Positions 28,918 through 63,973 of a stretch of DNA of 64,000 nt are shown in pieces. The DNA lies in the IMG/VR virus record IMGVR_UViG_3300028920_000027, positions 118,336 through 182,335 of that record, one strand, 5' to 3'. The notes beneath the pieces were generated by a model, which was not told where the DNA came from, did no database searches, and saw only the letters and a program-made list of their open reading frames with translations. The position numbers and the translations under genes were made by a program. Source of the stretch: a virus. Positions within the stretch are counted from its first letter, which is position 1. Each line of letters begins with the position of its first letter.

Positions 28918-28920
28918 GGT

Positions 28921-33418: not shown

Positions 33419-33480
33419 CAGGATCAGATTCTACACCAGATCGGCTGAACGTTTTCGAAACTCGCGGCGTATGGTTGGGT

Positions 33481-34047: not shown

Positions 34048-34074
34048 CGGGCTCCACTCTCAAACGGCTTGGAC

Positions 34075-34740: not shown

Positions 34741-34792
34741 ACACTTCTGGGCTCAGATCCAGAAGCCGACGACGAAGGCACGGAGAGGCCCT

Positions 34793-35219: not shown

Positions 35220-35410
35220 GAAGCGACCGCCGTTGGAAAAGCTTTCCTGACGTCCCTAGTCCTTGCTCATCAGCTCCCAAGACGTCGGGGGCGGGGCTGA
35301 GTAGCTCTTGGGTTTGACGTAGATGGGCGAGTCGGGGACCTTGTGTGGGTCCACGTTGGTGACTGAGGTGCACCGGGGAGTGGTGATTTTTGGATCGGAT
35401 TGCGAGCCGT

Positions 35411-39226: not shown

Positions 39227-39281
39227 GGGAGCCAGTATACACCGATGCTGAGGTGGGCACGGCGCGACTTGCGCGGTTATG

Positions 39282-40316: not shown

Positions 40317-40625
40317 GAGCCGCAGTCTACCTCAACCACATCAAGAAGTCCGAAGAGGTAAAACCTGCCGCCGCCAAGACTGCCCCCGCCAAGACTGCCC
40401 CCTGAGAGCCCCTTCGATCACTTGCAGGTAGCCGCCATCGACGTCGACGAAGCAGCTTCCCAAGGCGATCCAGCCTTGGCTAACTAGCCTGGGTGCGACG
40501 ATGGGAAATAAGCTCGATCCCCCGCCCAAAGAGGGAGCGAGGGCTCGAAGACGCCTATGACCAAGGCGTATCCCGACGACTGGACCCTCTCAGCTTACTC
40601 GTGCAGGGTTCGCTGGCAACTTCTT

Positions 40626-40931
40626 TCAGCGGACCCGGTGCGTGGCTCGAGCCCGTAGCAGCGGTTTGAGGCCAGCGGCGGCCTTACTCAACGCGGCCCG
40701 CTCACCCGTGGTCAAATGCCCCCGGAACGCCTCTTCAGCCGCCTCGGCCACGTCAATGAGGCGGTCGAACACCTCGGCGAGCGCCTCATCCCGTTCGTCA
40801 TCGTCCATGGACTCCAAGTCTTCGGGACGGTAGCCCAGGCTGCTGGGGTCGTAAGCTGCCTCGACCAAGGTGTAAGCAAGCTTGGGATTCGTGGTCGCTA
40901 GTTGGACAGCGCGGTGCGCGAGTCGATCCAT
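40626..40931 (-). CDS. Hypothetical protein
   Basis: Real start MDRLAH; the longer ORF-track frame is antisense to the ATP-grasp gene. Confidence 0.55.
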   Translation of the reverse strand: MDRLAHRAVQLATTNPKLAYTLVEAAYDPSSLGYRPEDLESMDDDERDEALAEVFDRLIDVAEAAEEAFRGHLTTGERAALSKAAAGLKPLLRARATHRVR

Positions 40932-41000
40932 GCCAGACCGTTCCGATGAGTCTTTCCGGTGTATCCTCACAAACGTCTCCCCCGGGGAAGCCGCACACTG

Positions 41001-41717
41001 ATGGTCACCTACATTGAAGTCTCTCTCGGCACCAAGATCCCGTTCGATGAGTCTGCCTACGCCATGTGGTACGGCTGCCGGCAGCTCGACGTCGAGACGC
41101 GCACCTTCGACTTCTTGCAAGATGTCGAGCCCGACCCGGAACATGTTGTGCACGGCAAGGTCCGCACGGTGCTCCGAGCCCTGCGTCGACTCCAAGTGCC
41201 GCCGCCACCCCCGCTCGATGCCCCCGAGCCGCTCCTCCCCTTCTTCGGGCGCCGCATCTGGACCACGACACTGGGCGCCATCCGCGAACACAGGGGTCGA
41301 GTGTTCATCAAGCCCGCTGAGGACCAGAAAGCCTTCACCGGGTTCGTCGCTGACGATCCCGTGCAGACCATGGTCCGAACTGCACCCTTTCCCAACGATA
41401 TGCCATTGCTCGCTTCCGAACCCGTCACCTTCGTCGCTGAGTACCGCATCATGGTCCACCACAGGCGCCTCATCGCCTGCCGCCACTACTCAGGGGACTT
41501 CACCACCTCCCCCGACTTCAGCGTCGCCTATGCCGCCGTGAGAGCCTTCACGGCCGCCCCCTGTGCCTACAGCCTCGACCTCGGCGTCACCAATGATGAC
41601 CGAACGCTCATCGTCGAGGTCAACGACGCCTGGGCGCTAGGCTCCTACGGTACGCCGCCCATGCTCTATGCTCGGATGATTGCCGACCGCTGGCGTCAAC
41701 TCGTGGGGCTCGAATGA
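41001..41717 (+). CDS. ATP-grasp domain protein (DUF4343/R2K-like)
   Basis: VFIKP..KAFTGFV..EYR..YSGD..YSLDLGV..IVEVNDAWALGSYG. Confidence 0.85.
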   Translation: MVTYIEVSLGTKIPFDESAYAMWYGCRQLDVETRTFDFLQDVEPDPEHVVHGKVRTVLRALRRLQVPPPPPLDAPEPLLPFFGRRIWTTTLGAIREHRGRVFIKPAEDQKAFTGFVADDPVQTMVRTAPFPNDMPLLASEPVTFVAEYRIMVHHRRLIACRHYSGDFTTSPDFSVAYAAVRAFTAAPCAYSLDLGVTNDDRTLIVEVNDAWALGSYGTPPMLYARMIADRWRQLVGLE

Positions 41718-41992
41718 CTATCATCGCCTTCACCGTCGGCCGCACCACAAACTACGAACGTGGCCTGCACATGCGGAAGGTCGGTCGCACGGAGGACTAT
41801 GACGGAGGCTGTGTCTTCCGCACCATACCCGAGGCTCAAGCCTTCATCGACCAACACGGGTACCCCTACAGCGTCTACCAGCTCGTGCTCCAAAGCGACG
41901 CTGACGTGGATTGGGCCCGCGAGGCCGAGCTGGGCTACGGCCTCCTGCTCGTTGATACTCCCATCACGGCCCTATGCCGCCCACAGACGTGA
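41714..41992 (+). CDS. Hypothetical protein
   Basis: ATGA overlap with the previous gene. Confidence 0.6.
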   Translation: MTIIAFTVGRTTNYERGLHMRKVGRTEDYDGGCVFRTIPEAQAFIDQHGYPYSVYQLVLQSDADVDWAREAELGYGLLLVDTPITALCRPQT

Positions 41993-42115
41993 GGTAAGAC
42001 GGGTGGCTCCAAAGTCTCCCTTCACTCAGGAAGAAGCAAACCGGGCCACGGACGATGGTGTACTGTGGTGATATCCGCCCCAGGCCCGGGAGAAAGGTAG
42101 AAGGTAGAAAGAAAA

Positions 42116-44978: not shown

Positions 44979-45269
44979 GTGGCCACATGGGAAGGTCTGG
45001 TCACTAGTCGCGAACAGCGCCGCCAAGGCTTCTGCATCATGCCAACGCCACCCTGCGACGACCACGCCGCCATCCTGGCCTACCTAGGCACCATCCCCGA
45101 GCTCGAAGCAGACGCCATCACGCTGTACGTCCAGAACGGCATGGAGCCGGAGAACATCGCTGCCGTCATCGGGACCGACTTCGCGACCGCGCGCCGGGAC
45201 CGAGAAGTCCAACAGCTCGCCCAGGACGCACGCCGCCCGTCCCTCTGGGAACGGCTCAGCCGCTTGTAG
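44979..45269 (+). CDS. Hypothetical protein with C-terminal PSLWERL tag (start uncertain)
   Basis: Ends RRPSLWERLSRL. Confidence 0.55.
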   Translation: MATWEGLVTSREQRRQGFCIMPTPPCDDHAAILAYLGTIPELEADAITLYVQNGMEPENIAAVIGTDFATARRDREVQQLAQDARRPSLWERLSRL

Positions 45270-49090: not shown

Positions 49091-49889
49091 GCCCCGCGTC
49101 CGTTCGACTGAACTGGCGCTTCAAAGAGAGGGTGAGCACACCGTTTCTGGAAGGGCGTTCGTGAGCCCGGCCCTCGACCTGCCGGACGGGGAACTACAGT
49201 CGTGGTTTGATCGCGCGTTCATCGACGATGACGACATTGAGCGCCTACCTCTTCTCCGAGAAGCGTTGTCCGCCGGTCCTGTGGTCGTAGACACGTATCC
49301 CGATTGCGACTCGCGTGGCGAACTCCACGCCTATGTCTTGGCGCCTGCCGTGACGGAGGCTCCGTTGTTTGCTTGCGTGTTGGCGACGACGGAGGCAGTC
49401 AAGATGCTGCTGAGAGAGCCGCCACATGCGATTCTCGAAACTGCAACTTTTCAGGTGGTCGGCGACCGCTTCACCACCGACTCCGTCCCTGCCGCTTTGC
49501 AGAACTGGGCGAGCCGAGTATTCGGCTTGGATGGGGTCGAATTCACGCTGCACCCATGGACAGAGCACGCGGACGCCGGGCTTCCTGATGTGTCAGAGAA
49601 GCAGATGCCCAGCTCGGGCACCGTTTGCGTGGCTGAATGGCGGCAGAGCACCGCCGCTGGTCAGTTCGGCTGGTATAGAACTAACCTCGGCTACGAGTTG
49701 CACGAGTACCGTCACGACGACACCACGGGAAGCACCAGCTCCCGCGTGCTTACTGTGGTGTATAAACACGGGAACTGCTTTGTTGGTCCGTGCCAACGGT
49801 GCGGGTCCGAGCACACAAGCCCCGTCAGTCCGGTTGGGCCATGGTGCTGTGCCCACTGCGGGGAGGGAGTAGAGGAACCCAATGTGTAG
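49074..49889 (+). CDS. Hypothetical protein with C-terminal Zn ribbon
   Basis: CQRCG..CCAHCG. Confidence 0.6.
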   Translation: MTEKIEPRVRSTELALQREGEHTVSGRAFVSPALDLPDGELQSWFDRAFIDDDDIERLPLLREALSAGPVVVDTYPDCDSRGELHAYVLAPAVTEAPLFACVLATTEAVKMLLREPPHAILETATFQVVGDRFTTDSVPAALQNWASRVFGLDGVEFTLHPWTEHADAGLPDVSEKQMPSSGTVCVAEWRQSTAAGQFGWYRTNLGYELHEYRHDDTTGSTSSRVLTVVYKHGNCFVGPCQRCGSEHTSPVSPVGPWCCAHCGEGVEEPNV

Positions 49890-50322
49890 CCACAAACATA
49901 CGTTCGAAGCCCGTACTAGGGGCTTTACGGGACCGGTGAGCGATAGCGAGAACAAAGCAGCGCACGGCTGCGTGTGTATCACCGTTGAGTGCCGCGATTG
50001 CGGGGCTCGCCGCGAGGAGAATCGCAACTGGCTCCACGTGGAGCGCGGGCCATGGGGGCCGAGCCGAGACGAGCGGCGGGCCAAGGTCGAGCAGCTCCAG
50101 CGTCGGTTACCGCCGATCCCTCCCACCGTCACCCTGATCCGGGCAGACGGTGAGACGGCTACGCTGACTCCCGACGGCGAGGGGATGCTCTTCGTCTCCT
50201 CATCTGCTGAGGTCAGCCAGCGCGAGCATTGTTCGCTCGTGGGGCTCTACCCACACCTTGACGCACTCATTGCTCGACGGCGGGCAGTGATGGCGCTCCA
50301 GGCGGAGGAGCGCGCAATCTGA
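49882..50322 (+). CDS. Hypothetical protein with Cys/His motifs
   Basis: CSHKH..CRDCG. Confidence 0.6.
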   Translation: MCSHKHTFEARTRGFTGPVSDSENKAAHGCVCITVECRDCGARREENRNWLHVERGPWGPSRDERRAKVEQLQRRLPPIPPTVTLIRADGETATLTPDGEGMLFVSSSAEVSQREHCSLVGLYPHLDALIARRRAVMALQAEERAI

Positions 50323-50393
50323 GAGTTCGGCGAGCGCAAACGCTATGCGACTGGGAGCGGGAGCACGCCGACCTTGCTGCCGCCGTCGCCGAG

Positions 50394-50732
50394 GTGCGGG
50401 CTCGAGTCGGGTTCGTGCCTTGTCAGCAGGGAGAACGACCGGTGGTATACTACGCAGTGTGCAACGCAAACGGGCCAATCAGCGTGGAGCTAGGCTCCAC
50501 CTTAGACGACGCCCTAGCGGCGTGGGAGGCGCTCGACGGACGCCGCGTCATCGACGACGCGAAGGCGGATGTTGAAGACGCGCTCGGCATCGCCGGCGCG
50601 TGCATGTCCGAGACGGAGTTCGATGCAGCGATGGAGGATTCTGGTGCTGAGTTCGTGCGGGAGCTCGGCGAAGTGGACCAGCACGGCCGCACAATGGTCG
50701 GTGACTGGTACCTCTGGGTGGTAGAATTATGA
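50394..50732 (+). CDS. Acidic hypothetical protein (start uncertain)
   Basis: ORF track. Confidence 0.5.
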   Translation: MRARVGFVPCQQGERPVVYYAVCNANGPISVELGSTLDDALAAWEALDGRRVIDDAKADVEDALGIAGACMSETEFDAAMEDSGAEFVRELGEVDQHGRTMVGDWYLWVVEL

Positions 50733-51256
50733 CCCACTACCTGCACCCGTCCGCAGACCTGGCTCTGCGGGCTATCAAGACCGCCCCGCCTGGAAATGTG
50801 AGAGCTCTCCTGTTGGAGGGCCCACCCGGATGCGGCAAGACGAGCTTCGCCGAGCACCTTGCTCGCGAGCTCGGCGCGCAACTGGTTTACCAGTTGCTCC
50901 ACTCCTGGTCTGACGACCAGGAGCTATTCCGCGGCGTCAACGTTGTTGCCGCTGTAGCGGGCGATGCTGATAGCGTCGCACAGCCCGGGGTGCTGGCACT
51001 GGCTGCCAGCGCATCCCACGCGGGGATCGTCGTGGTGTGCCTCGACGAGCTGGATAAGGCTCCAGATCGAGTAGAGGCCCTACTCCTTGATGTCCTTCAG
51101 TCGGGGCGCGTGCCAATTGCGCCCGGAGTGCATGAGCAACTCTGCCTTGACGGCAGGCGTCAGCGTTCTGTCGGTCGCAGACAGACGAATGGCTCCGCCA
51201 ACCAGACGCTCACTTGCAAGGGGTCGGCAGCGCCGAATCAATCCTTGCCGCGTTGA
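50729..51256 (+). pseudogene. AAA+ ATPase (MoxR/AAA_5-like), C-terminally truncated
   Basis: Walker A GPPGCGKT and Walker B VCLDELDKA present; similarity ends before the expected sensor-1 and Arg-finger motifs. Confidence 0.75.
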
Positions 51257-51263
51257 GGTTGCT

Positions 51264-51977
51264 ATGACTCACTACCACCCAAGCGCGGCTCTGGCCCCGG
51301 TGCTGCTCGGACTAGACGAGAACATCGAGCGGCGCCTCTGTAAGTCGTGTGGGACAGAGGTGAAGGTGGGCATCTTTTTCGGGATTGAGTGGGCCCATTT
51401 CCGGTGTTGGGCTTCTGACTGGCGCGGACATGTCGTCATGCACCGTACGTCCATGCGGACACGGTTCCTGAGAACACGACCGAGTACCGTTTTGCCGGAA
51501 ATCTCCCGGAGGTTGAGGCGGAAGATTCTCGCATCGCGTCGTTGCTCTAGACTGGAAGCGATCCAGGTGCTGGCGAGGACCTACCCTGACCTGCGACGAG
51601 GCTTTGCTGTACCGACCGTCCCACAGTCCACCATCGAAGCCGCCGGCTTCACCCCAGAAGCTCTCTTCGAGGAAGTCTGTGCAGTTTGCTACGATGCGAT
51701 GGAGGTACAAGGCACATCCGCCAGACAAGGTAGCCAAAGCGCTTCAGGGGAGTTGATGCCTGACTTGTGCGAGTGGAACCCCGAGCACGGTGTCGCTGCC
51801 ACCGAACGGCGCTTCGACAACGGTACCGTTGAGCGGGCAGGGTGCTCAAACCCTGCTCAACTGATAGTTGGGGCCAAAGGAAAGTGGCGACTTTGCCGAA
51901 GATGCGCATCACTGCCTTATTTTCGTCGCTATCGGGTCCGGATTGCCATCGGTGCGACTGCTGGGCGAAATGATTGA
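51264..51977 (+). CDS. Hypothetical protein with Cys clusters
   Basis: CKSCG..C; CEW..C..LCRRC. Confidence 0.5.
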   Translation: MTHYHPSAALAPVLLGLDENIERRLCKSCGTEVKVGIFFGIEWAHFRCWASDWRGHVVMHRTSMRTRFLRTRPSTVLPEISRRLRRKILASRRCSRLEAIQVLARTYPDLRRGFAVPTVPQSTIEAAGFTPEALFEEVCAVCYDAMEVQGTSARQGSQSASGELMPDLCEWNPEHGVAATERRFDNGTVERAGCSNPAQLIVGAKGKWRLCRRCASLPYFRRYRVRIAIGATAGRND

Positions 51978-52171: not shown

Positions 52172-53116
52172 ATGATCCAGTACACTCCTCGAGACTACAA
52201 GACTCTACTCTGCCAGCCCGCGCCCGGCTGGTCTAATGCTTCAATTGTCGAGCTGGTAGAGTTGGCCTGTGCCAACTGGCTCGACCCCCAGCATCCAGCC
52301 TGTCAAGTGGCAGGCGATGCCCTTCAAGAGCTCGGTATCAGTTCAGTTCGTGAGGTCGAGTTGGTTCCCGGGGTCACAACACGGATGCGCTGGATCCCGC
52401 CTGGAAGGTTCCTGATGGGGTCGCCGAAGGATGAGGTTCGGCGACACGCCGACGAGCAGCAACACTGGGTGACATTGACGCGCGGATTCTGGTTGGGGGA
52501 GACGGCGGTCACGCAGCGCGAGTGGGAGGCGGTGATGGGGGAGAACCCCAGCCGTTTCAAGGGCGAACAGCACCCCGTGGATAGTGTGAGCTGGAACGAC
52601 TGCGCAGAGTTCTTGAAGCGCGCCCCACTCGAACTGCGTCTCCCAACCGAAGCTGAATGGGAATACGCCTGTCGAGCGGGGACGCAAACGCCGTTCAGTT
52701 TTGGCGAGAACATCACCACTGACCAGGTGAACTACGACGGAAATTCCCCCTATCCTGGTGGTGCGAAAGGTGAGTACCGCAGGAAGACAGTTCCTGTGCG
52801 GTCACTCCCGCCCAATGAATGGGGCCTCTACGAGATGCATGGGAATACCTGGGAGTGGTGTAGCGACAGGTACGACAACTACCCAACGAAAGAGCAGCGT
52901 GACCCCGTCGGACCAGAAACAGGCATTTACCGTGTCCTGCGCGGCGGCAGCTGGCTCAACTGCGCCTGGTACTGCCGCTCCGCTCAGCGCCTCGGGACCT
53001 TGCCGAACTACCGCTGGAACGACCTGGGTTTCCGCTTGCTCGCAGAGGGGCATGTCCTAGTATGTCCAGAAGCTGAACCCGCCTATGCCCCCGCTGAGGT
53101 GCAGTCCACGTCCTAA
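52172..53116 (+). CDS. Formylglycine-generating-enzyme (SUMF1/FGE-sulfatase) domain protein
   Basis: IPPGRFLMGSP..HPVDSVSWND..RLPTEAEWEYACRAG..GLYEMHGNTWEW..RVLRGGSW..GFR. Confidence 0.93.
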   Translation: MIQYTPRDYKTLLCQPAPGWSNASIVELVELACANWLDPQHPACQVAGDALQELGISSVREVELVPGVTTRMRWIPPGRFLMGSPKDEVRRHADEQQHWVTLTRGFWLGETAVTQREWEAVMGENPSRFKGEQHPVDSVSWNDCAEFLKRAPLELRLPTEAEWEYACRAGTQTPFSFGENITTDQVNYDGNSPYPGGAKGEYRRKTVPVRSLPPNEWGLYEMHGNTWEWCSDRYDNYPTKEQRDPVGPETGIYRVLRGGSWLNCAWYCRSAQRLGTLPNYRWNDLGFRLLAEGHVLVCPEAEPAYAPAEVQSTS

Positions 53117-53929: not shown

Positions 53930-54352
53930 GTGGCTTCGAAGCGTGAGGCATTGAGTGTGAAGGCATCGGGGCCTGTGGTGTTGTTGTTGCGAGCGATGGC
54001 GCGGCGGTACTCGTGGGTGACGCTGCACAAGCTGACGTTGGTGTGTATTCGTTTGGGGCTGAGGGCACTCGACCAGCGCCCGCATTTGCTGGAGAAGGAG
54101 CTACGGGCGATGCAGGTGGAGAGGCAAGAGCATGACCCACGGAAGGGTAAGAAGAAGCGTGCAGTACGGCGGAAGGCAGCGGGGCCACCTCGGAAGGCCA
54201 AGCCGAAGCCGCCGGGGCCGGTAGCGCAGGGAGCGATACCGCCAGCGCCGAGGTTGAGAGAGGTATTGACGCCTGAGCTATTGGCGAGCGTGATGTCGGG
54301 TGTTTTGGGGAAGGGCAGTATCGAAGTAGACCTGAAGGAGCCAGATGACTGA
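53930..54352 (+). CDS. Basic hypothetical protein (possible DNA binder)
   Basis: GTG lies 5 nt after GGTG-TAGAGT. Confidence 0.55.
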   Translation: MASKREALSVKASGPVVLLLRAMARRYSWVTLHKLTLVCIRLGLRALDQRPHLLEKELRAMQVERQEHDPRKGKKKRAVRRKAAGPPRKAKPKPPGPVAQGAIPPAPRLREVLTPELLASVMSGVLGKGSIEVDLKEPDD

Positions 54353-54710
54353 GGGCTTCAGCTACACGGCGAGTTGGAGCATATCGGCATCGGAGTTGGT
54401 GGGGGCATCGAGGCTCGACCTGGTGGGTGCTGTTGAGCGGCAGTTGGAGGAGCAGCTAGCGAGGCATTGGGACCGGGTGGTAGCGGGGCTACTGGGCGAG
54501 GCGCCACTGGTACAGAAGCCAGCGATACCGCCATGGCGTCCACTGACCCCCTACTGGGCGCGGGTAGCGAACGTGGAGGCGCGAGGGGAGAGCGTGACGT
54601 CGTTGGATGAGCTATTGCCCGGAGCATCTCAGGCAGCTCGGGTATCGAGGAGCTGGGGCTGGACGCCACGGCCACTGACCTTGTGGGAGCGGCTTGATGA
54701 CAATGGCTGA
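54345..54710 (+). CDS. Hypothetical protein with TLWERL tag
   Basis: Ends PLTLWERLDDNG. Confidence 0.65.
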   Translation: MTEGFSYTASWSISASELVGASRLDLVGAVERQLEEQLARHWDRVVAGLLGEAPLVQKPAIPPWRPLTPYWARVANVEARGESVTSLDELLPGASQAARVSRSWGWTPRPLTLWERLDDNG

Positions 54711-54751
54711 ACGTTTTGGTCTTTTGGTGTAACCCCCAGAGAAGGATTTTC

Positions 54752-54955
54752 ATGAAGAAGCACCCTAGGATGAGCGAACACGTGGAAGGCCTACAGCCCT
54801 CCAGGACCGTCGAGCTGACCTGTGCCCAGTGCGCGTGGTCTGCCTGGTTCGATCCCCTAGCTCCCGAGGTCATGGCAGCCGTGGAGGGCGTTGTGCACAT
54901 CTGCACAACGTGTCGGGGCCGTGCTCTTCCCACAGAGAAAGCCTCATGCCCCTGA
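54752..54955 (+). CDS. Small Zn-finger protein
   Basis: CAQC..CTTC. Confidence 0.55.
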   Translation: MKKHPRMSEHVEGLQPSRTVELTCAQCAWSAWFDPLAPEVMAAVEGVVHICTTCRGRALPTEKASCP

Positions 54956-55917
54956 CCGGTGAACAGCGCGCTGAGTTACGACGGCTCGGGTGGACGGACC
55001 AGCAGCTCGGCAGTGCCGACAACCTGGGCCTGACCTTCGCGACACTCCGGGACGCCGAGGCCCATGAGCCAAGCTCCGTGGGGCGAACGCTCCAGGCATT
55101 GGGTCCGCCAGGCTCCGTTCAAGGCGTCCAGGTCGATCCTTCGGACCCGACCTTCGATGTCATCGAGCAGGTCCGGCAGATGACGGGGCACGGCATCACA
55201 TTCGCTCGCCAGGCGGTTCCAGAGCACCTTCCGTTTGACCTTTCAGGCGAGGCGGACCACTTCCAGGCCCTTACGCAAGCCGCCTTGAACGTTCCCCCTG
55301 AGTGGCAAGCCGCCAGTGGCCAGGTCTACCCTACCGTGGCAGAAGCCAACCAAGCCAACCATGCGTTTTTGGAAGCAGATATTCAGGGCTTCACGCGCCT
55401 GTGCCGCGATCCCGGGAACCAACGACGACCACATTCGCTCGACGAGCGGTTGCAGAGCACCTCACCTTCCCGTCCCGAGAATTGGGCCGAGGCCCTGCGT
55501 GCCTTGGGTGAGATGGGCTCGAACCCTGACATCCCGACCTGGAGGCAGCGTTTTGGTCTCAGCGATGAGGACGCGACAGTGTTACAAGTCGAGCACGCTA
55601 TGCAAGCGGTCACAACCCATGACATCACTATCGACCGTGAGTTCGTCGAGCGGTTGCAGCGCGACATTGCCTTTCATGCTCAATTCGAGCTCTTTTATGG
55701 CGCCTCACCCCGCGGTCGCCAGCAGTTTGGGGTCGAGTACCAGGGGGTGTTCGTCGACGAGGCCGCTAACTTCCCCGAGGTCTTCGTTCCCACCGAAGAG
55801 GAGATCAAGCAGATGTATGCCGACGACGCTCGTCGGGGACTGAGCGAGGACCAGCAGAAGATTCGGGACCGTCGGCCTACCCTGTGGGAACGGCTCAGGG
55901 AGGGCGGCGAACCATGA
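54946..55917 (+). CDS. Hypothetical protein with PTLWERL tag
   Basis: Ends RPTLWERLREGGEP. Confidence 0.7.
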   Translation: MPLTGEQRAELRRLGWTDQQLGSADNLGLTFATLRDAEAHEPSSVGRTLQALGPPGSVQGVQVDPSDPTFDVIEQVRQMTGHGITFARQAVPEHLPFDLSGEADHFQALTQAALNVPPEWQAASGQVYPTVAEANQANHAFLEADIQGFTRLCRDPGNQRRPHSLDERLQSTSPSRPENWAEALRALGEMGSNPDIPTWRQRFGLSDEDATVLQVEHAMQAVTTHDITIDREFVERLQRDIAFHAQFELFYGASPRGRQQFGVEYQGVFVDEAANFPEVFVPTEEEIKQMYADDARRGLSEDQQKIRDRRPTLWERLREGGEP

Positions 55918-56246
55918 TGGTCTTCGAGCCCGCCCTGCGCCGTATCCTTGACGACCTCCCCCGCGGGGCCGAGATCCTCAACGTCACTTTTGGTCAGCAG
56001 GCCCCCGCGCAACGCCTTCATCGTCTACGACGGGAAGTCGGGGCGTGGACGCGCTGAAACAGGCCGCCACGTCGGCGAAGTACCCCCGGTCCATTGTTCC
56101 TGAGATGCAGCGAGGCCAGCACTCGTACTACCGATGGTGCCCTCTAACCTTCGCCATCGAGCGGGTACCTCCCAAGGGGTCCGTGAGCGACGAGCATTTC
56201 CCCTCTTGGGCTGAACGATCCCAAGGGTCGCAGCGTATAGTGGTTC

Positions 56247-56540
56247 ATGAGCAAGTTCAGCATCCACAGCGAGTCCGTCACAGAGATCCCCTTCAACGCG
56301 GACGAGCTAGCCAGGACCGGTATCATCACGGTGAGCGAGGGTGTTGTCGAGATCTCTACCCCCAACGCCCGCATCCCGCTTCGGTTCTGGTTTCGCCGGA
56401 CCCACAACCGTGATCGTCAAGCTCGCACCTTGCACCTCATGAGCGGCCCTCGGACGAGTGACCACCCCGGCGAGTACCGCAAGGCTCGTGCCTGGGCCGA
56501 CGCCAACCTCCCCTCCCGCGCGGCGGCGGAGGCAAAGTGA
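56247..56540 (+). CDS. Hypothetical protein
   Basis: ORF track. Confidence 0.5.
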   Translation: MSKFSIHSESVTEIPFNADELARTGIITVSEGVVEISTPNARIPLRFWFRRTHNRDRQARTLHLMSGPRTSDHPGEYRKARAWADANLPSRAAAEAK

Positions 56541-56546
56541 TACCCA

Positions 56547-56732
56547 GTGGATCCACGCCTGGATTTGCTACGACAGCTCGGTCACTACGAGAAGCTACCA
56601 CCCGTAGGGTTTGTCATCGAGCGGTTGTGTTCCTCTGAGCTTTGCCATCGAGAAGCATCAAGAAGAGCCCCCCTGCCATGGGTAGACGGCCGACCCTGGT
56701 GGGAACGTTTCAGGGAGGCCGCCCGTGAGTGA
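56547..56732 (+). CDS. Small hypothetical protein with variant tag PWWERF
   Basis: Ends GRPWWERFREAARE. Confidence 0.45.
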   Translation: MDPRLDLLRQLGHYEKLPPVGFVIERLCSSELCHREASRRAPLPWVDGRPWWERFREAARE

Positions 56733-57240
56733 CCGCGTCATTGCCAAGGTCATTCCTGGCAAGCGGCCTCCCTTGAGCGTGGGAGACGCTTGCCTCACGT
56801 CGTGGCGCCAGTGGGTGCCTCAGCTGGGGTCCAGCCCCAGCCTCTCTATGTGGACGCCATGCCAAGGGCGGCTGCCCGTCACCGATCTGGGCAGGTTCAA
56901 CCATCCTCAGGCTCTGCTGGAAGACCTGAATCGTGGCTTGGACGACAAGGCTCAAGCTTGCCAACAGCGAGAGTTTCGGGACCATCAACTGAGCGACGAG
57001 CAGCGATGTGGGGCTCGGATTCTGGACATCATCATCATCAATGCCTTGAAGACTCTTTACAAGGGTTCGATACTCCTGGTCCATTTCCAGCTAACCTTCT
57101 CCGTGCGGTTTGCCATCGAGAGCGTTCCTGACTCGACCGTTGGGTTGATCTGTCCCCGCATCTTCGCCGAGACCGTGACTACATGGCATCCCGAGGGTAA
57201 GGTGGCCCCGACCCTGTGGGAGCGACTGGGTGATGGCTGA
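56725..57240 (+). CDS. Hypothetical protein with PTLWERL tag
   Basis: Ends APTLWERLGDG. Confidence 0.7.
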   Translation: MSDRVIAKVIPGKRPPLSVGDACLTSWRQWVPQLGSSPSLSMWTPCQGRLPVTDLGRFNHPQALLEDLNRGLDDKAQACQQREFRDHQLSDEQRCGARILDIIIINALKTLYKGSILLVHFQLTFSVRFAIESVPDSTVGLICPRIFAETVTTWHPEGKVAPTLWERLGDG

Positions 57241-57688
57241 CCCTATCAGTGGCTGGTACCGGGCCAAGCGCTCGTTCACGATGGATACACACGACGGCCC
57301 ATCTGAGGTCGAGAGTGGAGATCGGCTTTTCTATGTGGGTGCCGGCCGCGTTCAGGTCAAGGACGGGAAGATTTGTGAGGTGGTGGACGGCACGAACCTC
57401 TTCGAAGTAGTCTACGAGGTGGGGTGGGTCAAGCTGCTCGCCGCCGCGAAGACTCCTGAGCCCCTGAAGTTGAAACGGGGCTGGTACGTGGTGGTTCGGT
57501 CGTTCACGCACCAGAAGAGCGACATCTCGGTAGACAATGACGCCTTCATCTTCTTTGACGGCGGGCGCGGTCAGCTTGGGCAAGGTCGGTATCTGGAAGC
57601 CGACATCCTTCAGCACATGCTCAAGGTCGGGTGGATTGCCCCTGCCCAAGGGGCCCCGACCCTATGGGAGCGGCTTGATGTCGAGTAG
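57233..57688 (+). CDS. Hypothetical protein with PTLWERL tag
   Basis: Ends APTLWERLDVE. Confidence 0.7.
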   Translation: MADPISGWYRAKRSFTMDTHDGPSEVESGDRLFYVGAGRVQVKDGKICEVVDGTNLFEVVYEVGWVKLLAAAKTPEPLKLKRGWYVVVRSFTHQKSDISVDNDAFIFFDGGRGQLGQGRYLEADILQHMLKVGWIAPAQGAPTLWERLDVE

Positions 57689-57730
57689 TCATTGCGGGCC
57701 GCCACCGGGCCCAACGGTGTAAAGTGGCTC

Positions 57731-58366
57731 GTGCGCTTCGACCACATTCGCTTTCTGTGGGTTGATCACCCGGACCGCCTGACCCCGACGTCCGGCCGTT
57801 CCTGGAGCCTCATCTTCACGGGGGGTAGCCCTCTCGACACGTCGGCGCCCTACCACCATCGCGGTTACCTTTGGGGCGAGACAAAACACGGCAAGGCGCG
57901 GGTGCACAACTGGCGGGCGCTGGGGTACCACGAGGTCCAAGACCACTTGGTTCGCTTGGCGCACCACGCGCCTGCCGATGCCATGGAGCGCATGAGTGCC
58001 TACAAGGAAACAGAGGTCCTTGACTCGGTGGGTGTCGTTCGGATCGCGGCTCAGTGGACTCTCGACTACTACATGGCCAATGAGGTCTTCCCCACGAACG
58101 AGGAGCATGAGCGGTCTGGGCCGTTTCCACCAGACTCGTGGCTCTGGATTCGTTGCTACAAGCCGCCCCTGACCGCGGATGACCTGACCAATGAGAGTCG
58201 GAGGGAGAATGGCAGCCCCATCGTGTTCCAGGCGAGCATCACCGTGATGGGGCGGGATCCTCAGGAAGGTGACCGCGAGCTGCCAGCTTTCTTCTGCCAG
58301 ACCCACGCGATGCACAATCGAATGGGATCGGCGGCGCCTCAGCCAACCCTGTGGGAGAGACTATGA
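57731..58366 (+). CDS. Hypothetical protein with PTLWERL tag
   Basis: GTG lies 5 nt after GGTG-TAAAGT; ends QPTLWERL. Confidence 0.7.
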   Translation: MRFDHIRFLWVDHPDRLTPTSGRSWSLIFTGGSPLDTSAPYHHRGYLWGETKHGKARVHNWRALGYHEVQDHLVRLAHHAPADAMERMSAYKETEVLDSVGVVRIAAQWTLDYYMANEVFPTNEEHERSGPFPPDSWLWIRCYKPPLTADDLTNESRRENGSPIVFQASITVMGRDPQEGDRELPAFFCQTHAMHNRMGSAAPQPTLWERL

Positions 58367-58953
58367 CAGCGCCAATTCAAGAACGAGTTTGGTTCGAGCA
58401 GTTGCCCGATCTAGCTGAGCCTGTGTATGCGTTTGACGCGAACACAGAGATCGTCCGGTTGGGTCTGGGTAGTGACCCCTACGCGCACCTGGAGCCTCGG
58501 GTGTGGACCTTTCAAACGGACAGATTCGATGCCCCAGGCCAGATTTCCCTCACGAAGATCAAGATCCCGGTAGTGAACTCTGCCTTGGGATTCTTGCTTC
58601 AGTTCACTCACGATAAAGCCCAAGACCCTTGTGTCGTGAGCCAACGGTTGAGGGCGACGCGACCTCCCATTCTCAAGGCGGCGGCGGCCCGGCTCGCTCT
58701 CGACCAGCTCGTAACAGACGCTATCAAGTGGTACAGTCAGGAGGATTCTGACTCTCTTTTGTGGATCGTCCACCGACCGCCTAATCAAGCTGGGACGTCG
58801 ATGGTCTGCTTTACGATGTTGAAAAATCTTGCAGAGGGTGTGGGAAATACCACTTCTCCTCCCGAGAAGTGGGGCCTCACTCGCGATCTGTTGATCTCCC
58901 TGGGAGATCGCTCCCCGCCTCAGGCCCCCGTGGGAACGGTTGGGGATGATTAA
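58363..58953 (+). CDS. Hypothetical protein (WERL codons present out of frame at the 3' end)
   Basis: ATGA overlap with the previous gene. Confidence 0.6.
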   Translation: MTAPIQERVWFEQLPDLAEPVYAFDANTEIVRLGLGSDPYAHLEPRVWTFQTDRFDAPGQISLTKIKIPVVNSALGFLLQFTHDKAQDPCVVSQRLRATRPPILKAAAARLALDQLVTDAIKWYSQEDSDSLLWIVHRPPNQAGTSMVCFTMLKNLAEGVGNTTSPPEKWGLTRDLLISLGDRSPPQAPVGTVGDD

Positions 58954-58991
58954 CGGACGATTTCCTGAACGGAATCCGTATGGGGTACATC

Positions 58992-59165
58992 ATGGCTGAC
59001 TCACCGCATGACAATTATAACTCGTTTGATCCGCTAAAGTGGGTCTTTGGTCCCTTTGCGGTATTTGGGTGTGGTTTCTTGGCTGTTTGGGTGATCTCTG
59101 CCCTTGCATCCTTGGCCCTCATCGGAGCGGCCATCTATCTGATCTATTCCACAGCAACACTGTGA
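58992..59165 (+). CDS. Small membrane protein
   Basis: Long hydrophobic stretch. Confidence 0.55.
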   Translation: MADSPHDNYNSFDPLKWVFGPFAVFGCGFLAVWVISALASLALIGAAIYLIYSTATL

Positions 59166-59220
59166 CGAGGCCAAATGCCCTCGCGGCGTATCGAAACACG
59201 AGCGGCCATTTGGTCCAAAC

Positions 59221-59598
59221 ATGAAAAGCATCCCCATGGGCATCGAAGGCCGCCACATTCATCTCAGCGACTACGCTCAGCAGCCCGAGGTTCGCATCGC
59301 CTGCACCCAGCGTTACAGCAGCCCCTGGAACCAGCCCAAGGACCTACCTCCGGGCGTCCACCAGCTCGACGAGGACCTCTACACGTTCGACGAGGATTTG
59401 GTGACTTGCCCCGAGTGCAAGGCCATGCCTGTCTGGGTCAAAGGGTATACCCGCAAGCGGCGCTTCGAGGCACAGCTCCAGCTCTGGGGGCTGACGGGGG
59501 GCGAGTACGTGGCCGCCACGAGGGCAGACCCCTTCCTCACGAAGTTCTCCCGAGCTTCGGATGAGGAACTCGACCGCATCTGGAAGGGTGAGACATGA
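59221..59598 (+). CDS. Hypothetical protein
   Basis: CPEC motif. Confidence 0.6.
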   Translation: MKSIPMGIEGRHIHLSDYAQQPEVRIACTQRYSSPWNQPKDLPPGVHQLDEDLYTFDEDLVTCPECKAMPVWVKGYTRKRRFEAQLQLWGLTGGEYVAATRADPFLTKFSRASDEELDRIWKGET

Positions 59599-60218
59599 TA
59601 GTCGATACCATCTGCGAGACCTACGCCCGCTTCGAGGAAGTTCCCTTCGACAAGCCCATTGGGGTGACTCTGCCCGACGAGGCCAAGGCTTTGGTTGCTG
59701 AGGTCAACCCCTGGGCGGTGCCCGTTCCCGAACGGTTGAGGTGGGCCAACCTGATGCCTGGGATCTGGGACGTCAGCATCCGTTGGCCACGGTTGGTTTT
59801 CCCTCATTATGCGGAAGAGCACATCGAAAAGATACTAGCCTGCTGTACACATGACCAACAGCAGGCAGCACGAAACCTGATCGCCAGTGCCGCGAGTCAT
59901 GACGATGAGGGCGTCTGGGCACTCAACCGACGCGCGGCAGGACTCTACGCTGATGCCCTCATTGCGCACATCCTTGCTGAGCGCCCCCGGATGTTCCCTG
60001 ACAGCTACCTGTGGGTTCGGTGGCAGTCCGGGCGCAAGGAAGATATCGAAGATGAGCCGGTGCTGAGCGTGTTCATTCTCAGCACAGAGTGGGAGCCTCC
60101 TGCGGGTCGTCGCCTCCCCAAGGAGGAAGTCGACAGCATGACCACCTATACCCTGATGAACCGGTGGCATCTTCAGGTCAAGGGTCCAACCCTGTGGGAG
60201 CGCCTGGCTCGTGACTGA
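59595..60218 (+). CDS. Hypothetical protein with PTLWERL tag
   Basis: Ends GPTLWERLARD. Confidence 0.7.
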   Translation: MIVDTICETYARFEEVPFDKPIGVTLPDEAKALVAEVNPWAVPVPERLRWANLMPGIWDVSIRWPRLVFPHYAEEHIEKILACCTHDQQQAARNLIASAASHDDEGVWALNRRAAGLYADALIAHILAERPRMFPDSYLWVRWQSGRKEDIEDEPVLSVFILSTEWEPPAGRRLPKEEVDSMTTYTLMNRWHLQVKGPTLWERLARD

Positions 60219-60861
60219 CTCTCCCTTTACCATCCGCTTCATCGAGATGGGCTCAACTCTGGAGGTTCATTCCAGCATGGGGGAGGTTCAGGCACTGGTC
60301 CTCCCCCATGACGCTGATATCTACGAGAAGCCAGTGCCTCGACTCGGATGGCGTCCCTTACCCTCTTGGGTAGTGCATGTGAGTGACACCTTGAACATCC
60401 CTAACCGGTCTGTGCCCGAGTCGACCGCGTATTTGAAGGAGGTGTGTTCCAGGGTGCGTCCTGTAGGTGGGTCCACCGAGGACGTGCGCCGCATGTTCAT
60501 CGACAGACTCGGTCAAGACCGGCCCCACGTTATCGTCGACATTGCATCGGCGTTCCATACCGACAACATCGTCGCCAACATTCTGCGTGGGGCGTACTCC
60601 CCTCCAGCCGAGAAGGTGACCATCGGCTTCAAGCACACCGACCGGCCCCACCTCGTCGTGTTGGCCGCCCGCAAGCATTTCTGGGAGCCTCAGAAGGTCC
60701 ACAACAAGCCCTGGGGCGACATCCCGCCCGAGGAGTGGCCCCAAGTCCGGGCAGTTCTCCGTGGCCTCCACCAGGGCGCGTGGTTTCGACCCTCTCCGAC
60801 CTTGTGGGAGCGACTTGCGCTGAACGATTCGGCAAGTCCATCCGTATGTGGACGCCAGTGA
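60211..60861 (+). CDS. Hypothetical protein with PTLWERL tag
   Basis: PSPTLWERLALND near the C-terminus. Confidence 0.7.
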   Translation: MTDSPFTIRFIEMGSTLEVHSSMGEVQALVLPHDADIYEKPVPRLGWRPLPSWVVHVSDTLNIPNRSVPESTAYLKEVCSRVRPVGGSTEDVRRMFIDRLGQDRPHVIVDIASAFHTDNIVANILRGAYSPPAEKVTIGFKHTDRPHLVVLAARKHFWEPQKVHNKPWGDIPPEEWPQVRAVLRGLHQGAWFRPSPTLWERLALNDSASPSVCGRQ

Positions 60862-60981
60862 TGATTCGTGCCCTGAAAGCGTTCGCTAAAGAGGGTGGCA
60901 GGCTCAGAGTGAGCGGTCCACGCCCGAGTGGGCCGTGACGGCGTTGGCTGCGGGCTGGACACCACCCAAGGGTTGGAAGCC

Positions 60982-61536
60982 GTGAAGCTCAAGGTCCGCT
61001 TCGAGGAAGTGCCTTCAAGGGGCCTGCCTATCTGTCGGTTAGACCCCTCTTGGTGCTTACATTTCCAGGGCGGTGACCCTTATGACGGGCCAGGTGAGTA
61101 CTCTTGGACACCAATGGCCCCTAAGGCGGGTCTCATCATGACCGCTTTCCGGCGAAAAAGTCTCGAGGAGGCCCGGGAGTGGCTTCAGAAGTGGGATCTC
61201 TGTGTCGAGCACGTGGACACCACCCAGCACATGGACTCCCCCCAGTTGGTGGACCGGGTGGCACAGTTCGCGATCGACCGGTTCGTTTGCATGCTCCTGC
61301 GTCCCTTGAATGACTTCTATTGGTACCGTGTTGTCTACCAGTACGGGTATGTCGCTGGAGAGGTAGCGCGGATTGCGGTCGTTCAGAGCCATGCTGAACC
61401 CCGAGGATGCTCCCTGGAGCCCCCGCCTTTATGGTGGGCCACGGGGCGCATGCTCAAGCATCGGGGCGTTCAGAAATGGCCCACAATTTGGGAGAGGGTG
61501 GCAAACGTCGGTGTAGAGTTTGACGACGATGCCTGA
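60982..61536 (+). CDS. Hypothetical protein with PTIWERV tag
   Basis: Ends WPTIWERVANVGVEFDDDA. Confidence 0.65.
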   Translation: MKLKVRFEEVPSRGLPICRLDPSWCLHFQGGDPYDGPGEYSWTPMAPKAGLIMTAFRRKSLEEAREWLQKWDLCVEHVDTTQHMDSPQLVDRVAQFAIDRFVCMLLRPLNDFYWYRVVYQYGYVAGEVARIAVVQSHAEPRGCSLEPPPLWWATGRMLKHRGVQKWPTIWERVANVGVEFDDDA

Positions 61537-61759
61537 ACCAATTGACCCTTACCGTTTCGTTGTCGGAATCGACTTCGGCCACCACGGCGACGAGACCGCG
61601 CTGGTGACCCTAAATCAGTACACCGGACGGGTGGCAAACTCTGAGCTGACCGTGCTCAAGCAACGACAAGTTCCCGCGGACCGCATCAAGTTGAGTTGGG
61701 GAATGGGCGACCTGGTGGAGCCCCCCACGCTGTTCGAGCGCCTGATGCTGGAGGAGTGA
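61529..61759 (+). CDS. Small protein with PTLFERL tag; N-terminus resembles an RNase H-fold strand (VVGIDFG..DETA)
   Basis: Ends PPTLFERLMLEE. Confidence 0.6.
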   Translation: MPEPIDPYRFVVGIDFGHHGDETALVTLNQYTGRVANSELTVLKQRQVPADRIKLSWGMGDLVEPPTLFERLMLEE

Positions 61760-62844
61760 TGACGGTCAAGTTCTTTGGGACACCGGTCGTTGACCTGGGG
61801 GAGGTGTGGTTTGTCTCCACCGACAACAGCATTGGCTTCCGCCTCACTGCTTTCGACGGGGGCATGATTTTGAAGACCATTCAGCCCAATTGGTCTCCCC
61901 GTGCCGTTCAGAACATGGGTCTGCTGGACCCCGTCAAGCGAGATTTCGGCGAGTTGGAGCGACCCGTTGAACCCAACGAGACGGTTGCTGAGGTCCGCGA
62001 GGACCTCAGTCTACAAGAACGAACTCTGCTTCTGGAGTATGTACTCCTTCAAAATCACCCCGAGCTAGCCCATCGATTCTCCCAGCAGCCCCATTTTGGT
62101 GGCTGGAAGGTCTTCCCCGACATGGCCGTCGAGTACGAAGGTGGGTGTGTGTGGTTCCGTTGTGGTGAAGGAATGCTCTACTACTACACTATCCACAATG
62201 AAAGGGTCATGGTCGACCAGTCGACCAGGTTTCTGACCTTGAGAGAGTGTGTGGGCAGTGCGCACATGCTCATGCAGCAGAGTCGTAAGGCTGAGATGGA
62301 AGCCATTCACGAGTACTCGACAGTCCGCCTGGACCCTGTCCGTACTGAGTTCGCGTGTGGCGCCGTGCGGGTGACGGCTTCGGGGAACGCCAATTGGGAA
62401 ATAACGTGCCGGGGGGCTCGTTACCTGGTGGTGCCGCGGGTGGTTCAGCGGCTGTACGCGGTGCTTGGGTCCGAATATCCGCTGATGTACGGCTTCACCC
62501 CCGAGGACGCGGTGAAGCGCTTCCTCGGGGCCAACCCGGAGTTGAGGGAAGAGTACACCTTTTTTGGGCGTGCAATTCCCCTCAATGGAGAGCTTGACCT
62601 AGGGGACGGTTATCGAGTCGTGATTGCGGAGGCTCGGGCATGGCTGATGCACCACGACACCGAGCTGATGCAGGTAATGTCGACAACCAACCAGAAAGCT
62701 CTTCAGAAGCTGGAAAAGGCTGCCGCCACGATACGATCTAACCTAACATCGTGGCGGGAGTTCGACTACAAGATCCAACGCTTTGGCATGGGACGCATGA
62801 CGGGTTTTCAACGCCTGCGCTTTGAGGATGAGTTCGATGATTGA
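61759..62844 (+). CDS. Hypothetical protein with variant tag TGFQRL
   Basis: Ends MTGFQRLRFEDEFDD. Confidence 0.65.
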   Translation: MTVKFFGTPVVDLGEVWFVSTDNSIGFRLTAFDGGMILKTIQPNWSPRAVQNMGLLDPVKRDFGELERPVEPNETVAEVREDLSLQERTLLLEYVLLQNHPELAHRFSQQPHFGGWKVFPDMAVEYEGGCVWFRCGEGMLYYYTIHNERVMVDQSTRFLTLRECVGSAHMLMQQSRKAEMEAIHEYSTVRLDPVRTEFACGAVRVTASGNANWEITCRGARYLVVPRVVQRLYAVLGSEYPLMYGFTPEDAVKRFLGANPELREEYTFFGRAIPLNGELDLGDGYRVVIAEARAWLMHHDTELMQVMSTTNQKALQKLEKAAATIRSNLTSWREFDYKIQRFGMGRMTGFQRLRFEDEFDD

Positions 62845-63067
62845 GAAGGTGGTGTACTTCCCGGACCCGGACGGCGTGGGTGATGGCGTGACGCTGCGGT
62901 TTACCCCTGAGGGCTACCAAAACCTGCGGGACTTCTGCGATAAAGTTGTTCCTCAAGACCAGCTTTGCAGGCGGTTCGCCTCCGCGCTCCGAGCCGTTGC
63001 CGATGCCGCCGATGCTCCGCCCCCCAATGCTTGGGAGATCCTGCGCGATGCCGCCGATGAGGGCTGA
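62837..63067 (+). CDS. Small hypothetical protein with variant tag NAWEIL
   Basis: Ends PPPNAWEILRDAADEG. Confidence 0.55.
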   Translation: MIEKVVYFPDPDGVGDGVTLRFTPEGYQNLRDFCDKVVPQDQLCRRFASALRAVADAADAPPPNAWEILRDAADEG

Positions 63068-63280
63068 GTCAAGAGTCGCTACCGAGCAACTCGATGAGTT
63101 GGCCCATCAGCTGGGCCCCCCACTCCAGCATTTGGCAGACAGGATGAAGCAGTTTGGGCAGGCCCTCACCCAGTTCTCGCTCGCTCTTGAGGAACATGTG
63201 GCACCTGCAAGCATGCCCTGGGCAGCCACGATCGGCCGCAGTCCATTGTCTTCCACCTTGTCTCTGCCAAGGAGCTGTAC

Positions 63281-63973
63281 TTGCACCTGAGGATCAACTG
63301 GTGGGGCAAGGATGGGCCGGCTGTAGCGTTGGTGCTGTATCGTTCGATACGGCCGTGCATCGAGAATGAGATCGCCGACCAAGGGGACCGTCGTAGTATT
63401 ATCGTTGAGTCTCACCTTCCCGACCACTTCGACGAAGAGTTCAAGAATGTCGAGCACGTAGCGAGTCACACCGATGTGGCTCTTCGCTTGTTGGAGAACT
63501 CAGTCCTCTCCCTCTGGCCCCAGCTGGCTCACGATCTGGAGCAGTCGCTCGCGCCCCGTCGTGTTGGGGCACCGGCCTTGGAACCCTGCTTCGGGTGGCT
63601 CATTGACCCGACCCACCGCCTCGGCGACACCACTAATAGGACCCTAGCCTTCAATGAGCTCAACAAGCATTCAGAGACCGCGGTGGCCTACTTTCTCCAG
63701 GACAGCGTGCTGATCTCCCCCATAGAGAGGTTCCCCCTCCCGGTGACGCTGAGTTACGACGTCTACTGGTTCGAATACGATGGTAAGGCTTTCTTGATTC
63801 GAGCCAGTAAGCGAAGGAAGGTGTACAGCATCATCCATTTGACGGACCTACCTGACGGGGCCTACCACGTGGTCTGGGGGTTCACTCCTATCGATGCCAT
63901 GGAGCGTTTCATGGATTCCCGAAGGAACCGGGCCATCCCCGAGACCATTTGGGAGCGCCTGAGTGATGACTAG
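63281..63973 (+). CDS. Hypothetical protein with TIWERL tag (may begin at 63057 via a frameshift)
   Basis: Ends PETIWERLSDD. Confidence 0.6.
   Translation: MHLRINWWGKDGPAVALVLYRSIRPCIENEIADQGDRRSIIVESHLPDHFDEEFKNVEHVASHTDVALRLLENSVLSLWPQLAHDLEQSLAPRRVGAPALEPCFGWLIDPTHRLGDTTNRTLAFNELNKHSETAVAYFLQDSVLISPIERFPLPVTLSYDVYWFEYDGKAFLIRASKRRKVYSIIHLTDLPDGAYHVVWGFTPIDAMERFMDSRRNRAIPETIWERLSDD

Follow-up and report, generated by a model that had tools for sequence, protein, structure and literature searches.

Targeting and docking peptides that are common to several proteins are a known type of element. The XB tether of SspB is a C-terminal ClpX-binding peptide, basic and of the LRVVK type, that docks on the zinc-binding N-domain of ClpX, and the cargo-loading peptide of family 1 encapsulins, which also lies at the C-terminus, after a linker rich in Pro, Gly and Ala, binds the interior of an HK97-fold shell through a consensus of the G-S-L-[KR] / L-x-I-G-S-L type. 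In poxvirus ankyrin/PRANC (F-box-like) proteins, variable target-binding bodies are plugged into a degradation machine by a conserved C-terminal module, PRANC being a folded domain of ~40 residues that binds host Skp1. In phage T4, the internal proteins IPI-III and Alt have in common an address peptide of ~10 residues, the capsid-targeting sequence (CTS), which is N-terminal and is cleaved off by the prohead protease (PMC3012670). Here, we describe a C-terminal tag of the WERL type that is carried by most genes of a block at positions 54345-63973 of a 64,000-nucleotide stretch of phage DNA (hereafter the window), which is the final 64 kb of a single 182,335-bp contig. What is new is this tag family and its breadth, and a search of the literature on phage WERL, huge-phage ClpX and conserved C-terminal motifs of jumbo phages found no description of shared tags.

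A C-terminal tag in a block of orphan genes

The block consists of 18 plus-strand open reading frames (ORFs; Table 1), which overlap their neighbours by 1-23 nt or are separated from them by 3-66 nt, with the exception of two wider gaps of 329 nt (55917-56247) and 213 nt (63067-63281). The strict form of the tag, defined as [ST]-x-[WF]-E-R-[LIV] near the stop codon and followed by 0-14 residues, is found in 10 of the 18, clear variants in three and a possible fourth variant in one more; three ORFs are untagged. The remaining ORF, which starts at 58351, has a PPWERL that sits one base out of frame behind a run of five C (C5). With one base lost from this run the protein would read ...APWERLGMIN..., and the slip is either an assembly error or a recent frameshift. 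These counts are those of the original prediction (about 18 plus-strand genes, ten with the strict tag, three with variants and one with the tag out of frame), which had also described the block as devoid of recognisable families, and neither Pfam nor PHROGs gave a family match to its proteins. The block abuts the end of the contig and may therefore continue past it.

The distribution of the tag is anything but random. Among the 246 proteins called in the whole 182-kb genome (simple ORF picks), all 14 occurrences of WERL fall within 20 residues of a C-terminus, against 0.04 expected, C-terminal [WF]ER[LIV] is seen 16 times compared with 0.29 in residue shuffles, and the enrichment of C-terminal 4-mers has a p of about 1e-30, statistics that together exclude chance. 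About 20 genes of this phage (G000) are tagged, all within the accessory half of the contig (80-182 kb). In a set of 17 tags, W, E and R are found at their positions in 16, 17 and 17 cases and the Thr has a Pro before it in 11; the tail that follows the tag, which is often acidic, has 0-14 residues in G000 and up to ~26 in relatives.

What is kept constant is the peptide, not the DNA that encodes it. Ten identical P-T-L-W-E-R-L peptides use five Leu codons, five Arg codons and GAG as well as GAA, and pairwise identity over the 60 nt that precede the tags is 28%, which is random; since codons are scrambled and flanks unrelated, the tag is a peptide and not a DNA signal, and selection on this peptide is shown, if indirectly. 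The same scrambled codons and random flanks lend no support to an earlier proposal that genes gain the tag by recombination at their 3' ends; the modes of inheritance that are seen are duplication (paralogues, especially in the relative G018) and orthology with a change of flavour. In several junctions of the block, the GGGAG of the tag or GAG-rich codons of its tail lie 5-12 nt before the next start codon, and these bases probably double as a ribosome-binding site, a role that cannot account for seven conserved residues. Tags are also borne by minus-strand genes, and by isolated and convergent genes with no gene downstream.

Two tagged proteins encoded in the window upstream of the block have features of their own. 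One, on the minus strand, has at its N-terminus a hydrophobic helix, behind which come basic residues and a stretch that resembles a coiled coil, and looks like a membrane-anchored protein that presents its tag to the cytoplasm. The other, of 96 residues, contains a helix-turn-helix that resembles sigma-70 region 4, in a weak match (E 0.002) that stays below the cut-off of Pfam. A function of the tag itself as a membrane-targeting helix was rejected, its flanks being acidic and not basic.

The bodies to which the tag is attached are another matter. BLASTP among tagged proteins finds little that is shared apart from the tag, and Smith-Waterman comparison after removal of the tag leaves as the only standouts the pairs of ORFs starting at 61759/63281 (z = 6), 54345/59221 (z = 4.5) and 57692/60928 (z = 4.2), so that the block is mostly non-homologous in sequence, with a few old duplicates. 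A Pfam domain is found in only 3-4 of 77 tagged proteins, and the tagged families are of clearly different kinds, namely a radical SAM enzyme (in a relative), a paralogue of the capsid protein, a membrane-anchored coiled coil and a core family, fam1, described below; a kinase-like P-loop protein is tagged as well. The original prediction had seen in the block a co-expressed cohort with one partner or destination, such as injected or early host-takeover effectors. A common partner or destination is supported by the retention of the tag on unrelated bodies and by flavours that change in step (see below), and co-expression fits the layout of overlapping genes on one strand, in which no internal promoters or terminators were detected.

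Further searches centred on the block returned little. Megablast against phage and plasmid collections gave no match. For the 207-aa protein encoded from 59595, a search of IMG/VR for related loci returned none, the ESM Atlas held no usable match and its own model was poor. A profile of the last 40 residues matched only itself among 5.8 billion proteins, the motif being too short for E-values at the scale of a whole database. A scan of the block for sigma-70 promoters and terminators gave fewer sites than in shuffles and is uninformative, and a selection test from microdiversity found the other assemblies of the same phage to be identical.

Flavours of the tag in related huge phages

The source of the window is a tailed, uncultured huge phage. 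Its contig has a CheckV completeness of 38%, and positions 1-118 kb are collinear, in inverted orientation, with 255-375 kb of a 437-kb relative, G001, in which terminal repeats are present; the contig is therefore a fragment of a ~0.4-Mb phage, with the block at its broken end. A portal search of IMG/VR returned 56 relatives, mostly of 230-530 kb, of which G001 is the closest (portal 72% identical). In this relative, ~20 proteins end in [PK]-T-x-W-E-R-[LI] followed by an acidic tail, and no homologues were detected between the tagged proteins of G000 and G001 in either direction.

Elsewhere in the clade, the tag comes in other flavours. An unbiased C-terminal k-mer scan of G018 finds L-W-D-H-L on ~27 proteins (p 6e-28), most of them encoded in one plus-strand block that is largely a single paralogous family, with W, D and H in 20, 20 and 23 of 28 tags. 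The LWDHL DNA pattern occurs 29 times in G018, 21 times in G020 and 36 times in G021 (0-1 for the reversed control), a run of >20 patterns lies at 164-180 kb of G021, and the dense architecture of the block at 54345-63973 recurs in both G018 and G021. The tag reads P-[TS]-[IL]-L-D-R-[IV]-L in G004, where it is often followed by SPFDD (L, D and R in 9, 9 and 7 of 9), and P-T-R-F-[ED]-R in G017. The WERL tag belongs to the same family as the latter, because both have a T-x-aromatic-[DE]-R core, and is one flavour of a recurrent, undescribed phenomenon.

Flavour is nearly uniform inside each genome, and one orthologue family ends in TVWERL in G001 and in SILDRIL in G004. Gene conversion cannot explain this uniformity, given the scrambled codons, and the fact that orthologues switch flavour with their genome argues for one co-evolving putative reader. 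The simplest reading, we infer, is that of one reader which co-evolves with all the tags of a genome. GC content varies across the lineages from 40 to 65%, a spread that implies different hosts, which could also drive the flavours.

A more distant relative, G032 (complete, 427 kb), is without ClpX, fam1 or any T-x-aromatic-[DE]-[RH]-L tag. In this genome, 80 proteins end in [IVL]-[MQH]-[EDNK]-S-stop (e.g. ...EIMES), at the extreme C-terminus, and this ...MES-stop ending is a second, different C-terminal tag system.

The tag is not confined to accessory genes. Conserved in the clade is fam1, a core protein of ~165 residues with 207 cluster representatives in a profile search, which ends in AFDRIM, TLDRLM, LYDHLL and LMDYL in four genomes. 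Of its near-full-length members, 142 were read, and almost all of these close with a basic linker, [RPK]-T-x-[YF]-D-[RH]-L-L and an acidic tail. In an AlphaFold2 (AF2) model (predicted local distance difference test, pLDDT, 94.5), it is composed of two small beta domains, a linker helix and a tag helix (163-170) directly after the conserved Thr 162, and the pLDDT of 89-95 over linker and tag suggests that these would pack against the fam1 body. The N-terminal domain resembles, weakly, barrels of the Tudor/KOW/CarD type (CarD and the RNA-polymerase-binding Tudor-like domain of UvrD/PcrA; Z 6-7).

Candidate readers of the tag

The best explanation overall, in which our confidence is evenly balanced, is that the tag serves as a docking or address peptide for one shared putative reader, with phage ClpX as the leading candidate. 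The block would then be a single transcription unit, tightly coupled and made up of accessory genes that evolve fast, whose products would be built to a common design, i.e. a variable body, usually a Pro-containing linker, a short amphipathic helix and a short, often acidic tail. This helix, with Thr as its predicted N-cap, a hydrophobic L/W...L face and an exposed Glu-Arg, would link ~8-10% of the proteins of the phage to a single reader, which would change slowly and be followed by every tag of a genome.

Among possible readers, the ClpX unfoldase leads, tentatively, its own chances being modest. A true ClpX by its match to a solved one (361 bits), it is present, in one copy, in every near-complete relative with this tag type and, in G001, G002, G004, G017 and G018, has the zinc-binding N-domain and the GYVG pore loop, with [VLM]-G-F replacing IGF; the RKH substrate-selection loop is replaced, and is hypervariable between lineages. 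The relatives that have ClpX, 16 of 25, are also those that have fam1, at a distance of 4-9 kb. No ClpP was found in the relatives of this phage, and ClpX would therefore need the ClpP of the host. The tag would tether proteins to ClpX, either for their timed unfolding or removal or as adaptors that deliver bound targets. A more ambitious version, which we consider improbable, is that the tagged proteins form a fast-diversifying adaptor library, in which orphan bodies would bind targets of the host or of rival phages and the helix would plug into a rewired ClpX plus host ClpP. This would amount to a programmable 'degrade-this' system, with the dense one-strand blocks as its arsenal.

A number of points weigh against ClpX: (i) its link with the tag comes down to essentially one independent loss, that of the ClpX-less lineage of G032 and G033 (tags checked in G032 only), and its co-occurrence with fam1 in fragments is trivial because of synteny, (ii) the phyletic pattern of ClpX is also that of 37 other clade-specific core proteins, including a 575-aa AAA ATPase, a GroEL-like chaperonin and a von Willebrand factor A (VWA) protein, which leaves too many candidates for a phyletic filter to decide, (iii) G002 has ClpX but only ~3 clear tags, and the 80 tagged proteins of ClpX-less G032 indicate that tags of this general kind need no ClpX, (iv) neither clpX nor fam1 lies on the 182-kb fragment, so that their presence in this genome is deduced from relatives, (v) the tag is not at the extreme C-terminus, unlike ssrA-type degrons, and its W/L helix and acidic tail differ from the basic XB peptide and (vi) an SspB-like fold for fam1 was looked for with Pfam, Foldseek and VIA-align and was not found.

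The surroundings of clpX in G001 deserve a mention. An ORF with a HELGH zincin signature precedes it, and 6 kb upstream is the 575-aa ATPase, which is of the classical AAA type and ends in an acidic tail; the three are conserved in relatives with this tag type. In vWA-MoxR peptide-processing modules, small diverging proteins with a conserved C-terminal motif go together with a VWA protein, a MoxR ATPase and a zincin peptidase. Possible counterparts of the last three would be the VWA core protein of G000, an AAA_5/MoxR-like ORF of the window and the HExxH protein next to clpX, none of which adjoins the block. The AAA_5/MoxR-like ORF (175 aa) is located 3 kb before the block, and its match to AAA_5 (MoxR/dynein-type ATPase) covers no more than the first ~105 positions; this truncated or minimal AAA+ protein is absent from the relatives.

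The tag could instead be read by another hub, which is unlikely although far from negligible. Host DnaK, host ClpX, RNA polymerase and the sliding clamp come to mind, as do the 575-aa AAA ATPase, the chaperonin, the VWA protein and the fam1 body of the phage itself. These phage proteins follow the phyletic pattern of the tag, and for fam1 the confidently modelled linker and tag suggest packing on its own body, against which stands the mutual information between tag and body columns, which gave no strong pair. The weak likeness of the fam1 N-terminal domain to RNA-polymerase-binding domains would suit the polymerase, and the different hosts implied by GC content would offer a second source of flavours. 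DnaK is disfavoured by the acidic flanks of the tag. A sliding-clamp-binding motif was rejected, since the C-termini of the replisome proteins (ligase, RecD2, clamp-loader subunits, RecA and methylase) are untagged and the sequence of the tag departs from the QL[SD]LF clamp motif. No candidate is singled out by these observations.

Rather improbable, in our view, is a capsid-loading signal, by which the tag would dock cargo inside the procapsid (on the major capsid protein, the scaffold or the portal) for packing and injection together with the DNA, as early effectors of host takeover or of anti-defence. Encapsulins, which have the HK97 fold, load their cargo through a C-terminal peptide that follows a flexible linker. 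Both G000 and G001 encode a tagged protein in which the first ~125 residues of the major capsid protein recur as a paralogous copy; in G000, this copy (29-46% identity in two segments) is joined to an unrelated Trp-rich part. Moreover, diverse, fast-evolving small proteins that share one targeting peptide are the pattern of the T4 internal-protein locus (PMC3012670), virion mass spectrometry of phage G found ClpX and ClpP (PMC12484599), and phage ClpX-type AAA+ proteins have been speculated to move proteins into heads (Iyer et al., PMC7824862), which would merge this explanation with that of a ClpX reader. However, no head-module protein of G000 is tagged, the major capsid protein is 88-91% identical across the W-E-R, W-D-H and L-D-R lineages, which is a poor fit to a co-evolving capsid site, and some tagged proteins, namely a radical SAM enzyme, a kinase-like P-loop protein and one that has a membrane helix at its N-terminus, would make odd cargo.

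It is very improbable that the tag is a relic without shared function, inherited from tandem duplication of one ancestral gene whose body diverged, because even though there are weak paralogues in the block (61759/63281 and 57692/60928) and the G018 block is largely one family, a neutral relic would decay with the body, whereas the tag is the only conserved part, held at the C-terminus of clearly different families and changing in step within each genome. A nucleic-acid signal (the 3' sequence acting as ribosome-binding site of the next gene, recombination site or RNA element, with the peptide as by-product) would suit the GGGAG contained in TGG-GAG and its spacing from the next start codon in several junctions, but is largely refuted by the codon variety of identical peptides, by tags on genes with nothing downstream, by flavours that are amino-acid substitutions at conserved positions and by the conservation of seven residues where a ribosome-binding site needs 4-5 bases.

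Genomic surroundings and known counterparts

Besides its head genes, G000 encodes a clamp loader (with an intein, and with delta and delta-prime subunits), RecD2, an NAD-dependent ligase, a class II ribonucleotide reductase, RecA, a GroEL-like chaperonin and the VWA protein. The intein, which contains a LAGLIDADG homing endonuclease, splits the ATPase subunit of the clamp loader, the G001 orthologue of which is half as long. In five genomes, two core proteins of unknown family keep other conserved peptides at their C-termini, namely [DE]-[FWY]-x-D-[LMV]-[LI]-x-x-V-stop and acidic, ...DLFEDL-type tails, which probably make contact with the replisome. The window also holds type I-C cas genes and, just upstream of them, an irregularly spaced repeat, one frame of which reads QGLLDP*GFQR. 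Just upstream of the block is a protein with an FGE-sulfatase (formylglycine-generating-enzyme) domain (E 1e-47), which is unusual for a phage and was not found in the four relatives compared.

Table 1. Block ORFs and other features of the fragment and of its closest relative (W, window coordinates; G000 and G001, genome coordinates)
Position	Strand	Product	C-terminal end	Tag	Remarks
W 54345-54710	+	121 aa	PLTLWERLDDNG	strict, TLWERL	no Pfam/PHROGs match
W 54716-54955	+	79 aa		none	Cys-rich; coding status uncertain
W 54946-55917	+	323 aa (362 from GTG 54829)	RRPTLWERLREGGEP	strict, TLWERL	
W 56247-56540	+	97 aa		none	
W 56547-56732	+	61 aa	GRPWWERFREAARE	variant, PWWERF	
W 56725-57240	+	171 aa	APTLWERLGDG	strict, TLWERL	tag GGGAG 8 nt before next start
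W 57230-57688	+	152 aa	APTLWERLDVE	strict, TLWERL	
W 57692-58366	+	224 aa	QPTLWERL-stop	strict, TLWERL	no tail; weak paralogue of 60928 ORF
W 58351-58953	+	200 aa	...SPPQAPVGTVGDD	out of frame, PPWERL	shifted by one base after C5 run 58925-58929
W 58980-59165	+	61 aa		none	hydrophobic, small membrane-like protein
W 59221-59598	+	125 aa	SDEELDRIWKGET	possible variant, ELDRIW	resembles L-D-R-I flavour of G004
W 59595-60218	+	207 aa	GPTLWERLARD	strict, TLWERL	orphan
W 60211-60861	+	216 aa	SPTLWERL + 14-aa tail	strict, TLWERL	
W 60928-61536	+	202 aa	WPTIWERV + tail ...VEFDDDA	strict, TIWERV	
W 61520-61759	+	79 aa	PPTLFERLMLEE	strict, TLFERL	F for W
W 61759-62844	+	361 aa	MTGFQRLRFEDEFDD	variant, TGFQRL + EDEFDD	domain in common with 63281 ORF (z = 6)
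W 62822-63067	+	81 aa	PPNAWEILRDAADEG	variant, NAWEIL	
W 63281-63973	+	230 aa	IPETIWERLSDD	strict, TIWERL	final gene before contig end
W 16749-17138	-	protein with N-terminal hydrophobic helix		tagged	
W 21700-22600		irregularly spaced repeat			
W 23451-24770		Csd1/Cas8c			type I-C
W 25322-26335		Cas7			type I-C
W 26392-28917		helicase-like 841-aa ORF			type I-C
W 44979-45269	+	96 aa	SLWERLSRL	tagged	
W 50729-51256	+	175 aa, AAA_5/MoxR-like			
W 52172-53116	+	FGE-sulfatase domain protein			
G000 24881-25759		HK97-type capsid protein			weak match
G000 27797-29284		head-maturation protease			PHROGs
G000 33419-35251		portal			PHROGs
G000 49107-51881		clamp-loader ATPase subunit with intein			locus L003:9107-11881
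G000 62839-63720 and 63822-64802		two core proteins, unknown family			locus L004
G000 77387-78955		VWA core protein			
G000 110953-112074		capsid-protein paralogue		tagged	locus L006:10953-12074
G001 39265-41993		clpX, preceded by HELGH ORF			locus L154
G001 111116-112093		counterpart of capsid-protein paralogue	KTWHERLL	tagged	

Huge phages have hundreds of orphan genes without a functional handle, which is precisely what a shared address peptide supplies. The tag would assign ~5-10% of the genes of a whole clade to one pathway, predicts a single reader that could be retrieved with a synthetic peptide and would lend itself as a natural label by which any protein could be directed there. As for the reader hunt, the flavours W-E-R, W-D-H, L-D-R and R-F-E-R, together with ~200 fam1 variants, represent a co-evolution data set. 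A reader that proved to be the capsid or phage ClpX would mean a new viral way of organising proteolysis or cargo delivery, and an adaptor library, if it exists, would be the bacterial-virus counterpart of the poxvirus ankyrin/F-box proteins.

Each of the known systems resembles the WERL tag in part. The likeness to poxvirus PRANC proteins is by analogy only (many viral proteins, paralogous or unrelated, with variable bodies and one C-terminal module) and provides the model for an adaptor library, but a 7-residue helix with a putative reader is different from a folded domain. The degrons of ssrA and MuA need the extreme C-terminus and its free carboxylate, whereas the WERL tag is followed by tails of 0-26 residues. 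With the cargo peptides of encapsulins, the tag has in common its C-terminal position and the Pro that often precedes its Thr; its consensus, [P]-T-L-W-E-R-L, is different, and a shell formed by the phage capsid protein would be nearly invariant, in contrast to tags that vary by lineage. With the T4 CTS, which among published systems comes closest to capsid loading and injection of this kind, it shares the setting of a hypervariable phage locus in which unrelated small proteins have only an address peptide in common, the cargo being probably anti-host, and differs in being C-terminal (0-14 residues from the end in every G000 case), predicted to be helical and endowed with a variable tail. With the SspB XB tether, from which it differs in chemistry as set out above, it shares the plan of a short peptide after a flexible linker, in phages whose near-complete relatives with this tag type encode a ClpX with the zinc-binding N-domain.

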